64,000 nt of DNA. It comes from Alphaproteobacteria bacterium. Lineage in GTDB: Bacteria > Pseudomonadota > Alphaproteobacteria > Rickettsiales > UBA8987. Of the stretch, positions 2-1,048 are shown one piece after another. Position numbers and translations under genes: made by a program. The stretch is taken from the NCBI GenBank assembly GCA_030429725.1, contig JAUIEX010000001.1, forward strand, positions 3,684 to 67,683. Direction: 5' to 3'. Within the stretch, counting starts at the first letter, position 1. Every line of letters starts with the position of its first letter. The notes beneath the pieces were generated by a model. That model saw only the letters and a program-made list of their open reading frames with translations. It was not told the origin of the DNA and searched no databases.

Positions 2-1048
2 TTTGAAGATATCTGCGAAATTATGAAGCAATATGATGTGGCCTTCAGCTTAGGCGATGGGCTGCGCCCCGGCTCCATTGCCGATGCCAATGATGAAGCC
101 CAGTTTGCGGAGCTGAAAACGCTGGGCGAACTCACCCAGGTGGCGTGGCAGCATGATGTGCAGGTGATGATCGAAGGCCCAGGCCACGTGCCGATGCACC
201 TGATTAAAGAGAATATGGATAAGCAGCTGCGTGAGTGTTACGAAGCGCCCTTCTATACGCTGGGGCCGCTCACCACCGATATTGCGCCCGGTTATGACCA
301 CATCACCAGCGCCATTGGCGCGGCGCAGATTGGTTGGTATGGCACGGCGATGCTATGTTACGTCACGCCGAAGGAGCATCTTGGCCTGCCCAATCGTGAT
401 GATGTGCGCGAGGGCGTGATTACCTATAAGCTGGCGGCGCACGCGGCCGATCTGGCCAAGGGGCACCCGGGCGCGCAGATGCGCGATGATGCACTTTCCA
501 AAGCGCGGTTTGAGTTCCGCTGGCGCGACCAGTTCAACCTCAGCTTAGACCCTGAAAAGGCGATGGAATATCACGACGAAACCCTGCCGGCCGAAGGCGC
601 GAAAGTGGCGCATTTCTGCAGTATGTGCGGGCCCAAATTCTGCTCCATGAAAATCTCTGAAGATGTGCGCCAATATGCCAGGGAGCAGGAAGCTTCTAAC
701 TCTCCCTTCACGGGGGAGTCTGAAAGCGCCTCATTCCCCCCTGGTGGGGGAATCGGAATCTCAGATTCCGATGGGGGGGATAGTTCAGAAACACCCCCAC
801 CAGCATCCCTGCGTGATGCTGACTCCCCCATCAAGGGGGAGTCATTTTCAAACGCAAACCCCCAAGTCAAAAATCCCGATATGGGAGGCCAGCAGGCCAA
901 CCGTGCCCACAGCGCGCGGCAGCGCCATCCCATGGGGAGTTCAGAAGAACTCACCGGGGATGAAAAACAAAAAGGCATGGCCGAAATGAGCGAAAAGTTC
1001 AAAGAATTGGGCAGCGAAATCTACATCGACCAGAAGAAGGTGGGTTAA
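2..1048 (+). CDS. thiC: Phosphomethylpyrimidine synthase ThiC, 5'-truncated by the window edge. The C-terminal tail carries a ~90-aa low-complexity in-frame insertion.
   Basis: The frame stays open back to nt 2 ([24 protein letters not shown]...). ThiC-typical sequence throughout, including the C-terminal [12 protein letters not shown] Fe-S motif. Stop TAA at 1046-1048. Confidence 0.93.
692..966. repeat. Intragenic palindromic (hairpin-dense) insertion read in frame within thiC. Boundaries are approximate.
   Basis: Stem-loops at 699-719, 733-753, 754-770, 821-843 (9-bp perfect GACTCCCCC/GGGGGAGTC) and 937-952. The recurring peptide is (N/D)SPxxGES. The segment shares a 22/27-nt block with the insertion at 52527-52655. 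Confidence 0.6.
1018..1048. repeat. Direct repeat copy 1: the thiC 3' terminus still attached to thiC.
   Basis: AATCTACATCGACCAGAAGAAGGTGGG (1018-1044) is identical to 1845-1871. Both copies encode IYIDQKKVG followed by a stop. Confidence 0.9.

Follow-up and report, generated by a model that had tools for sequence, protein, structure and literature searches.

The window analysed here was a stretch of 64,000 nt from an Alphaproteobacteria bacterium (Rickettsiales; UBA8987; assembly GCA_030429725.1, contig JAUIEX010000001.1, positions 3,684-67,683 of the forward strand), with a G+C content of 52%. The start of the window falls within thiC, the gene for phosphomethylpyrimidine synthase, and the 3′ part of this gene (2-1048, +) carries an in-frame insertion of ~88 codons (about 90 residues) at 692-957 (+). 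The thiC product was matched to Pfam ThiC_Rad_SAM at E = 2e-105 and to the Caulobacter ThiC structures PDB 3epm and 4s2a at E = 4e-134, and its core shares 88-91% identity with ThiC proteins of many bacteria. The insert follows the Fe-S motif region, whose last residues (...YAREQE) are encoded up to nt 691, and precedes the conserved C-terminal helix. The frame is open from nt 2 through the insert to the stop codon at 1046-1048, as had been stated in an earlier note made from the letters of this DNA.

The boundaries of the insert are approximate and were placed by an alignment with orthologues (A1), a gap against the solved structures and folding statistics. In alignment A1, six ThiC orthologues have 0-9 residues at the site occupied by ~90 residues in the window. 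In 3epm and 4s2a, chain residues 584 to 589 are the counterpart of query residues 229 to 322, and the extra ~90 residues were covered by no ThiC homologue among those listed. The earlier note had not recognised the segment from other ThiC proteins and had named this comparison beforehand as a test; orthologues and solved structures alike were found to be without it. The inserted peptide is of low complexity and rich in S, P, G, D and E. An AlphaFold2 prediction for the ThiC fragment (mean pLDDT 35.7, from a 7-row alignment) was uninformative about disorder.

A folding check suggested in the same note was run on 692-966. The RNA folding energy of this segment was -133.1 kcal/mol, compared with -96.0 ± 5.5 kcal/mol for shuffled sequences (z = -6.72), and thiC coding sequence immediately upstream (560-691, 132 nt) gave z = -0.26. 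The pair of repeat units within the insert (described below) gave z = -4.7 and a second insert, in a dehydrogenase gene, z = -3.8; as flanking thiC sequence gave -0.3, the structure is specific to the inserts.

The palindrome GACTCCCCC-N5-GGGGGAGTC was found five times in the window with up to 3 mismatches, where 0.02 matches were expected. The exact palindrome (18 specified bases) was then scanned in one genome per species, which yielded 69 loci, and the flanks of these loci revealed a larger, bipartite unit. At ~50 nt, the unit comprises three elements: a conserved hairpin 1 (ACTCCCCC-N5-GGGGGAGT), a variable, paired hairpin 2 and a GGTGGGGG tail. On one strand it is read as NN-ACTCCCCCC-TTGA-GGGGGAGTC, followed by the second hairpin and then GGTGGGGGG. 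Units occur in a short form of 46-56 nt and a long form of 64-66 nt, and all 21 aligned units begin (G)ACTCCCC... and end ...GGTGGGGGG. The earlier note had taken hairpin 1 to be the repeat; that this hairpin recurs was borne out, whereas the whole unit proved to be bipartite, with hairpin 2 and the G-tract tail as its further components.

Twenty-one short units, all from other phyla, were used to build a covariance model (R1) that included no window sequence. In these units the sequence of hairpin 1 is almost invariant, and in hairpin 2 all 8 of 8 pairs vary on both sides. Hairpin 2 cells were paired in 95.7% of cases, compared with 40-55% when the partner column was slid. R1 was run on the whole window with filters off and identified exactly four full-length units (E = 5e-8 to 7e-11), all of them in frame within two genes; no intergenic unit was detected by R1 in the 64 kb. 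The hairpin-2 sequences differ among all four, and the window units are therefore not recent copies or local duplicates of one another. Stems and tail contain no stop codon in any frame and the whole unit is usually open in 4-5 of the 6 frames, consistent with two spurious open reading frames (ORFs), 663-989 (+) and 571-1002 (-), that also traverse the thiC insert. An apparent third site at 25850-25880 was rejected as a chance match in conserved DegP/HtrA coding sequence and has no R1 match.

The thiC insert contains two of the complete units. Unit 1 (731-780, +) was matched by R1 over its full length with 49.4 bits (E = 2.3e-10) and consists of hairpin 1 at 733-753, hairpin 2 at 752-772 and the G-tract tail at 773-780. 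Unit 2 (791-844, -; 51.4 bits, E = 7.4e-11) presents on the plus strand a CCCCCACC tail at 794-801, hairpin 2 at 801-821 and hairpin 1 at 820-844. The two units lie tail to tail, 10 nt apart, and together span 731-844, or 114 nt (38 codons). The region before them, 692-730, is occupied by a solo hairpin 1 at 699-719 (+; ACTCTCCC TTCAC GGGGGAGT), read as NSPFTGES, which was matched partially by R1 (14.2 bits, E = 0.077) and is probably the remnant of a further unit. The remaining ~110 nt of the insert (845-957, +) are strongly structured, with a hairpin at 934-955 and z = -4.43 for 845-966, are unlike any unit, and may be decayed copies.

All five stems named in the earlier note were found at their coordinates. 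That at 699-719 pairs at 7 of 8 positions, those at 733-740/746-753 (8/8), 752-761/763-772 (10/10) and 820-829/835-844 (10/10) pair completely, and the last was located at 934-942/947-955. The note's further statement that every unit is read in the same frame did not survive: (N/D)SPxxGES is encoded by three of the five hairpin-1 copies in the window (699, 822 and 52600), and the copies at 733 and 52560 are read as FPPGGGI and TPPQVGS. In a consensus scan the hairpin at 820-844, a 10-bp G+C stem followed by ATTTTC, was returned as a terminator-like site (820-850) that precedes the conserved final helix, and the thiC transcript may therefore be affected in some way.

The second cluster lies 52 kb from the first, within an acyl-CoA dehydrogenase gene (50874-52802, +; 642 aa). 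Its product carries the Pfam domains Acyl-CoA_dh_N, _M, _1 and _C and was matched to PDB 8pns, the closest solved structure, at E = 2e-181. Two of the five palindrome matches fall here, at 52559-52621, and belong to two complete units in frame with the gene: unit 3 (52531-52582, -; R1 45.9 bits, E = 1.6e-9) and, head to head with it, unit 4 (52598-52651, +; 39.9 bits, E = 4.5e-8). Query residues 551 to 591 correspond to residues 550 to 553 of the 8pns chain, so that the two units account for ~37 extra residues in a loop of the C-terminal domain. Most of the 119 other relatives listed are of 584-615 aa, compared with 642 aa in the window, and in an alignment with seven relatives (A3) the insert is unique to the window protein. 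An orthologue from GCA_964588995.1 (P0164; L070 4036-4175) has an 85-residue insert with degenerate, related CCTCCCCCC/GGGGGGAGG hairpins elsewhere in the protein, an indication that the insertions arose independently. In another relative (P0220) the loop that carries the insert of the window protein holds one of 24 residues.

Further copies of the motif were thus present, as the earlier note had required of its proposal, both in this second gene and in large number in other genomes. Most of the 69 palindrome loci belong to metagenome-assembled genomes (MAGs) of very different phyla, among them Nitrospirales, Nitrospinota, Acidimicrobiia, Latescibacterota, Binatia, Acidobacteriota, Pseudohongiella, 'Rickettsiales' and others. 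From their titles, many of the isolate names are presumably those of sponge-microbiome material. In most of the loci outside the window the units are apparently intergenic, arranged as inverted pairs or arrays, as judged by short spanning ORFs and not by full annotation. Neighbouring pairs are tail to tail in 18 cases, head to head in 23 and in tandem in 5.

Four MAG contigs carry the label 'Rickettsiales bacterium', and all their strong units are in frame within conserved genes. Units were found at two sites in Der/EngA and in TsaD, and tail-to-tail pairs of 123 nt in a UPF0004/radical-SAM MiaB-like enzyme and in YbeY. A fifth gene, for the type I restriction specificity subunit HsdS, carries an in-frame tail-to-tail pair in a Nitrospirales MAG (L033 6006-6176); this pair is located mid-gene, between the two target-recognition halves, and Methylase_S was matched by Pfam in two stretches of the ORF. 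These in-frame cases were found through spanning ORFs and are subject to ascertainment bias. Only one gene shared by the window and the 'Rickettsiales'-labelled MAG loci was found, at 42% identity, too little to judge how closely they are related.

Several loci showed more elaborate arrangements. In two Nitrospirales MAGs (L053 3022-4377 and L041 6726-7615) unit pairs are repeated in tandem, every ~363 nt in the former and every ~424 nt in the latter, and a plus-strand and a minus-strand unit with different hairpin-2 types fall within each period. In the OZ253442.1 loci (L004, L008, L025, L029, L044) the unit is embedded in a larger repeat, with ~70 conserved nt (ggggctgttgaaaaagtccccc...atgcttatgaaat) before hairpin 1 and a second unit with a different hairpin 2 ~25 nt past the tail. 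The end of an insertion sequence was suspected in this shared flank and was rejected, as no transposase-like ORF adjoins it. A contig of 29% G+C labelled as a 'Rickettsia typhi' MAG terminates in a single G+C-rich unit (L014 6071-6144) and is probably an assembly or binning chimera. Carriage by phages was considered from 41 viral contigs containing the bare palindrome; these gave just 3 weak model matches (≤ 32 bits) and phage vectors were left unsupported.

All ORFs of the 69 unit-selected loci were clustered to find recurrent neighbour families. Genes of the DUF559 family were the only ones found beside units across genomes of different phyla; leaving aside clusters confined to Oscillospiraceae loci, which have conserved flanking genes in common, these small proteins were the notable recurrent family. 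DUF559 ORFs (Pfam E = 1e-31 to 1e-42) adjoin units in 5 of the unit-selected loci, from Latescibacterota and Nitrospirales, with one unit just upstream and units downstream. A non-circular test was made with 80 metagenome loci fetched by protein similarity to the DUF559 domain only (alignment A5), of which 72 were evaluable. R1 matches were obtained repeatedly just before the gene on the plus strand and just after it on the minus strand; the flanks are inverted copies of the C-run/G-run hairpin and G-tract. The sequence of hairpin 1 differs among these loci yet stays paired. With an independent ad hoc detector, whose background away from the gene was 0.15 per kb, the hairpin and G-tract were found in inverted orientation on both sides of DUF559 in 50 of 72 loci and on one side in 14. 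The thiC pair lies tail to tail, the orientation that brackets DUF559 genes, and so looks like a gene-less miniature. In two loci (L027 5317-5946 and L033 179-640) the DUF559 ORF reads through the upstream unit, which sits after the first ATG and ahead of the DUF559 domain (…ITPPLSGSRQDKGVSPQARRWGE…); a unit-encoded N-terminal peptide may thus belong to the nuclease, or its start may be further downstream.

The units were compared with known families of small repeats. Rickettsia palindromic elements (RPEs) are short palindromic repeats found in frame in unrelated housekeeping genes (Ogata et al. 2000, 2002, as cited in PMC10969869 and PMC3733652). In-frame palindromic insertion with the host frame kept was likewise found here, in thiC and the dehydrogenase gene and in der, tsaD, the miaB-like gene, ybeY and hsdS. 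Like RPEs, the units add a peptide segment without destroying the gene and are present in several copies per genome, sometimes at two sites in one gene. RPEs are A+T-rich, unlike the present unit with its C5/G5 runs, and measure ~100-150 nt as against ~50 nt. The host with its 52% G+C is not Rickettsia, and the family spans many phyla, is mostly intergenic outside one lineage and is associated with DUF559. The idea put forward in the earlier note, of RPE-like behaviour by an unrelated, G+C-rich sequence, is supported by the in-frame copies here and in other MAGs.

Repetitive extragenic palindromes (REPs), together with REPINs and bacterial interspersed mosaic elements (BIMEs), are also small G+C-rich hairpins that occur mostly as inverted pairs or clusters; inverted arrangements account for 41 of the 46 neighbouring unit pairs in our loci. 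REPs are defined as imperfect palindromes of 20-40 nt tagged with GTAG or CGTC at one end (PMC3733652), and no such tag was present at the ends of the 21 aligned units, which moreover consist of two hairpins and a G-tract. In the 'REPtron' layout repeats bracket a single-copy-type gene, as at the DUF559 loci. The bracketed gene is here a Vsr-like DUF559 nuclease and not the IS200/IS605-type tyrosine transposase of REPs (RAYT, REP-associated tyrosine transposase); no Y1 (IS200/IS605-like) transposase was seen beside units in the ORF clustering of the 69 loci, in which Y1 was not searched for specifically. Intragenic REP clusters are occasionally in frame and encode 20-82 residues (Di Nocera et al. 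2013, PMC3733652).

[quoted passage not shown] Like the thiC pair, MITEs have inverted end-like modules, a short spacer, no coding capacity and ends in common with a gene-carrying version, and in-frame fusion with host ORFs is within their reach. Inverted repeats at the termini, common to a longer gene-carrying element, were found here as tail-to-tail pairs with 10-55-nt spacers and as the flanks of DUF559 in the 50 loci bracketed on both sides. In contrast to MITEs, the gene-carrying version encodes no known transposase, and single units and head-to-head pairs also occur.

DUF559 has been grouped with Vsr in the PD-(D/E)XK superfamily (PMC3424549). It shares the nuclease fold of Vsr-like homing endonucleases such as the group I intron enzyme of PDB 3r3p, a fold with a selfish-DNA precedent in which spread occurs by cleavage and repair (PMC3424549). 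Unlike those enzymes, the DUF559 proteins have no intron or intein context and are bracketed by hairpin repeats, and their activity is only putative. In the searched literature that mentions DUF559, no link between the family and flanking repeats was seen in titles and the opening parts of abstracts.

In Rfam no family reached its gathering score for the units, and matches to microRNA models were discarded as artefacts of long G/C hairpins. The architecture is nevertheless that of Whalefall-1 RNA (RF01762), the closest curated RNA family: a 7-bp CU-rich/GA-rich hairpin closed by a UUGG-type loop is joined through a short linker to a second, variable hairpin, and the 3′ tail is GGGUGAGG. Weinberg et al. 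(2010, PMC2864571) proposed Whalefall-1 as an orphan non-coding RNA, with whale-fall metagenomes as its sole known source. Two window units scored 16.7 and 14.7 bits with its model and other loci 20.8-24 bits, below the gathering score of 37; the best score, 33.5 bits, was that of a unit flanking DUF559 (L071 998-1050), which suggests that the orphan RNA is a subfamily of the same repeats. Unlike Whalefall-1 as proposed, the units are DNA repeats scattered in either orientation, both within genes and on the flanks of DUF559 genes.

The thiC insert is best read as MITE- or REP-like satellites of a DUF559-associated element, that is, as short non-coding palindromic repeats that behave like RPEs, and we consider this reading probable. 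Within the extra ~265 nt of thiC, copies of the repeat have landed in the variable linker preceding the last ThiC helix; here as in the dehydrogenase the site is a loop tolerant of length variation. The gene-less inverted pair would be a miniature (MITE/REPIN-like) derivative of a DUF559-associated selfish element. The gene survives because stems and tail are free of stops, the added length keeps the frame and the site is a loop already variable in orthologues. By analogy with RPEs and intragenic REPs, translation of the insert most likely yields a linker rich in Pro, Gly, Ser and Asp that is probably disordered, and the insert may persist through near-neutrality. The units are presumably mobile. 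They may be spread by the DUF559 nuclease, possibly through cuts made in or close to the hairpins and then repaired; another possibility is that repeat pairs already in place are the homing sites of the nuclease gene.

Several observations weigh against this reading. No DUF559 gene is present in the 64-kb window. A Vsr-like nuclease alone is incapable of transposition and the gene could equally be a parasite homing into pre-existing repeats, so that dependence between units and DUF559 gene may run in either direction. The dehydrogenase pair is head to head and not tail to tail, and the picture of a MITE with two ends therefore does not fit every cluster. Neither a target-site duplication nor exact element ends could be defined; the ends cannot be fixed because the OZ253442.1 copies share extra flanking sequence. 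The segment 845-957 gave no R1 match at E ≤ 10, and BLAST matched it to none of the fetched loci. Two clusters are too few to quantify an intragenic preference in the source genome, translation of the thiC insert is predicted from frame preservation, and the terminator-like site within thiC at 820-850 is weak.

A wider interpretation, which we put forward tentatively and regard as possible though somewhat less than even, is that the two-hairpin units and the DUF559 genes they bracket constitute an undescribed class of selfish element. The nuclease would recognise or cut the structured repeats, spread would proceed by repair or homing and not by transposase chemistry, the element would have moved between many phyla, and Whalefall-1 would be a subfamily. 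Gene-less derivatives would then colonise essential genes in frame in one alphaproteobacterial lineage and by doing so create new disordered protein segments. Literature searches on the repeat family, on DUF559 together with repeats and on repeats of sponge symbionts returned no description of it. In-frame palindromic repeats are a known kind; the family, its cross-phylum spread and its DUF559 partner appear to be undescribed.

Of the alternatives to the satellite reading, the most durable is that the hairpins are a selected RNA-level element in the mRNA (a Whalefall-1-like RNA, an mRNA stabiliser or a pause of translation or transcription) and that the coding effect is incidental. The Whalefall-1 matches, weak though repeated and of the same architecture, the covariation of hairpin 2 and the terminator-like site at 820-850 are all in keeping with such an element. 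Covariation is, however, equally expected of a DNA hairpin recognised by a protein. Units occur in both orientations within one transcript, here and elsewhere, so that any RNA role must be orientation-independent; they are found in unrelated genes and in intergenic arrays, and they bracket DUF559 genes as inverted DNA repeats. We therefore consider an RNA-level element improbable.

It is very unlikely that mature ThiC is of normal length because the segment is lost on the way to it, whether spliced out as an intron-like RNA or an intein or skipped by ribosomal bypass in the manner of the GC-rich 'byp' elements of yeast mitochondria. Stable hairpins are dense in the insert, as they are in bypassed or spliced elements. 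The frame, however, is continuous through the insert into conserved downstream sequence in all cases examined, which frame-insensitive removal would not need, although this argument is weakened by the selection of cases through spanning ORFs. No Rfam intron or ribozyme family was matched, and Pfam returned only ThiC_Rad_SAM for the ThiC fragment, with no intein or Hint domain reported.

There is equally little to commend the view that thiC is a pseudogene in decay, or that the segment stems from misassembly, for example from a chimera induced by repeats in a MAG. The source is apparently an uncultured alphaproteobacterium whose closest dehydrogenase relatives are only 71% identical, repeats may mislead assemblers, and L014 looks chimeric. 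The frame is nonetheless intact, with 88-91% identity to functional ThiC on both sides of the insert and with the conserved C-terminal helix and stop codon in register. The identical clean in-frame pattern is seen in two independent genes, and comparable in-frame copies occur in independent assemblies from other projects.

Least probable of all is a low-complexity linker peculiar to the lineage that arose through local slippage or duplication and involved no mobile or dispersed element, a reading to which the composition (S, P, G, D, E) and the natural length variation of the site among ThiC proteins (0-9 residues) lend some colour, and which is already largely refuted by the matches (E = 1e-10) of a model trained on other phyla only, by the same units in a second, unrelated window gene and in dozens of genomes, and by the four different hairpin-2 sequences of the window units.

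In-frame palindromic colonisation of essential genes has so far been treated as largely a peculiarity of Rickettsia, with scattered REP cases. The same behaviour is now seen in a repeat family that is unrelated and G+C-rich, and a radical-SAM enzyme is among the hosts. R1 provides a searchable model of this family, and the repeats are linked to a candidate partner gene, DUF559, of unknown function in the open literature searched. Whalefall-1, an 'orphan RNA' of Rfam, may in fact represent a DNA repeat. Inserts of this kind inflate protein lengths, spawn spurious overlapping ORFs and can mislead annotation and domain-boundary calls in MAGs.

Other repeats were noted in the window. A 32-nt direct repeat (94% identical) at 1018-1049 and 1845-1876 copies the 3′ end of thiC. 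The segment between the repeats (1050-1876, 827 bp, 33% G+C) holds one ORF (1055-1747, 230 aa, no Pfam match) and resembles a foreign cassette of one gene, inserted where thiC ends and accompanied by a long target duplication. The pattern is matched at the 3′ end of an AIR-synthase/ThiL-like gene (41038-42012, -), which is copied by a perfect 63-nt direct repeat at 40050-40112 and 41038-41100. These repeats enclose a low-G+C segment whose encoded protein (40115-40981, -) bears an N-terminal methylation motif of the prepilin type. At 35235-35665, at the start of a 699-residue ORF (35224-37323, +), four 114-nt (38-codon) repeats, 61-73% identical, stand in tandem. A 36-nt inverted repeat at 20446-20481 and 20515-20550 (97% complementary) lies just upstream of a 476-residue ORF and has a third copy 26 kb away at 46809-46840, in direct orientation to the second; the copies may be island ends or a shared regulatory site.

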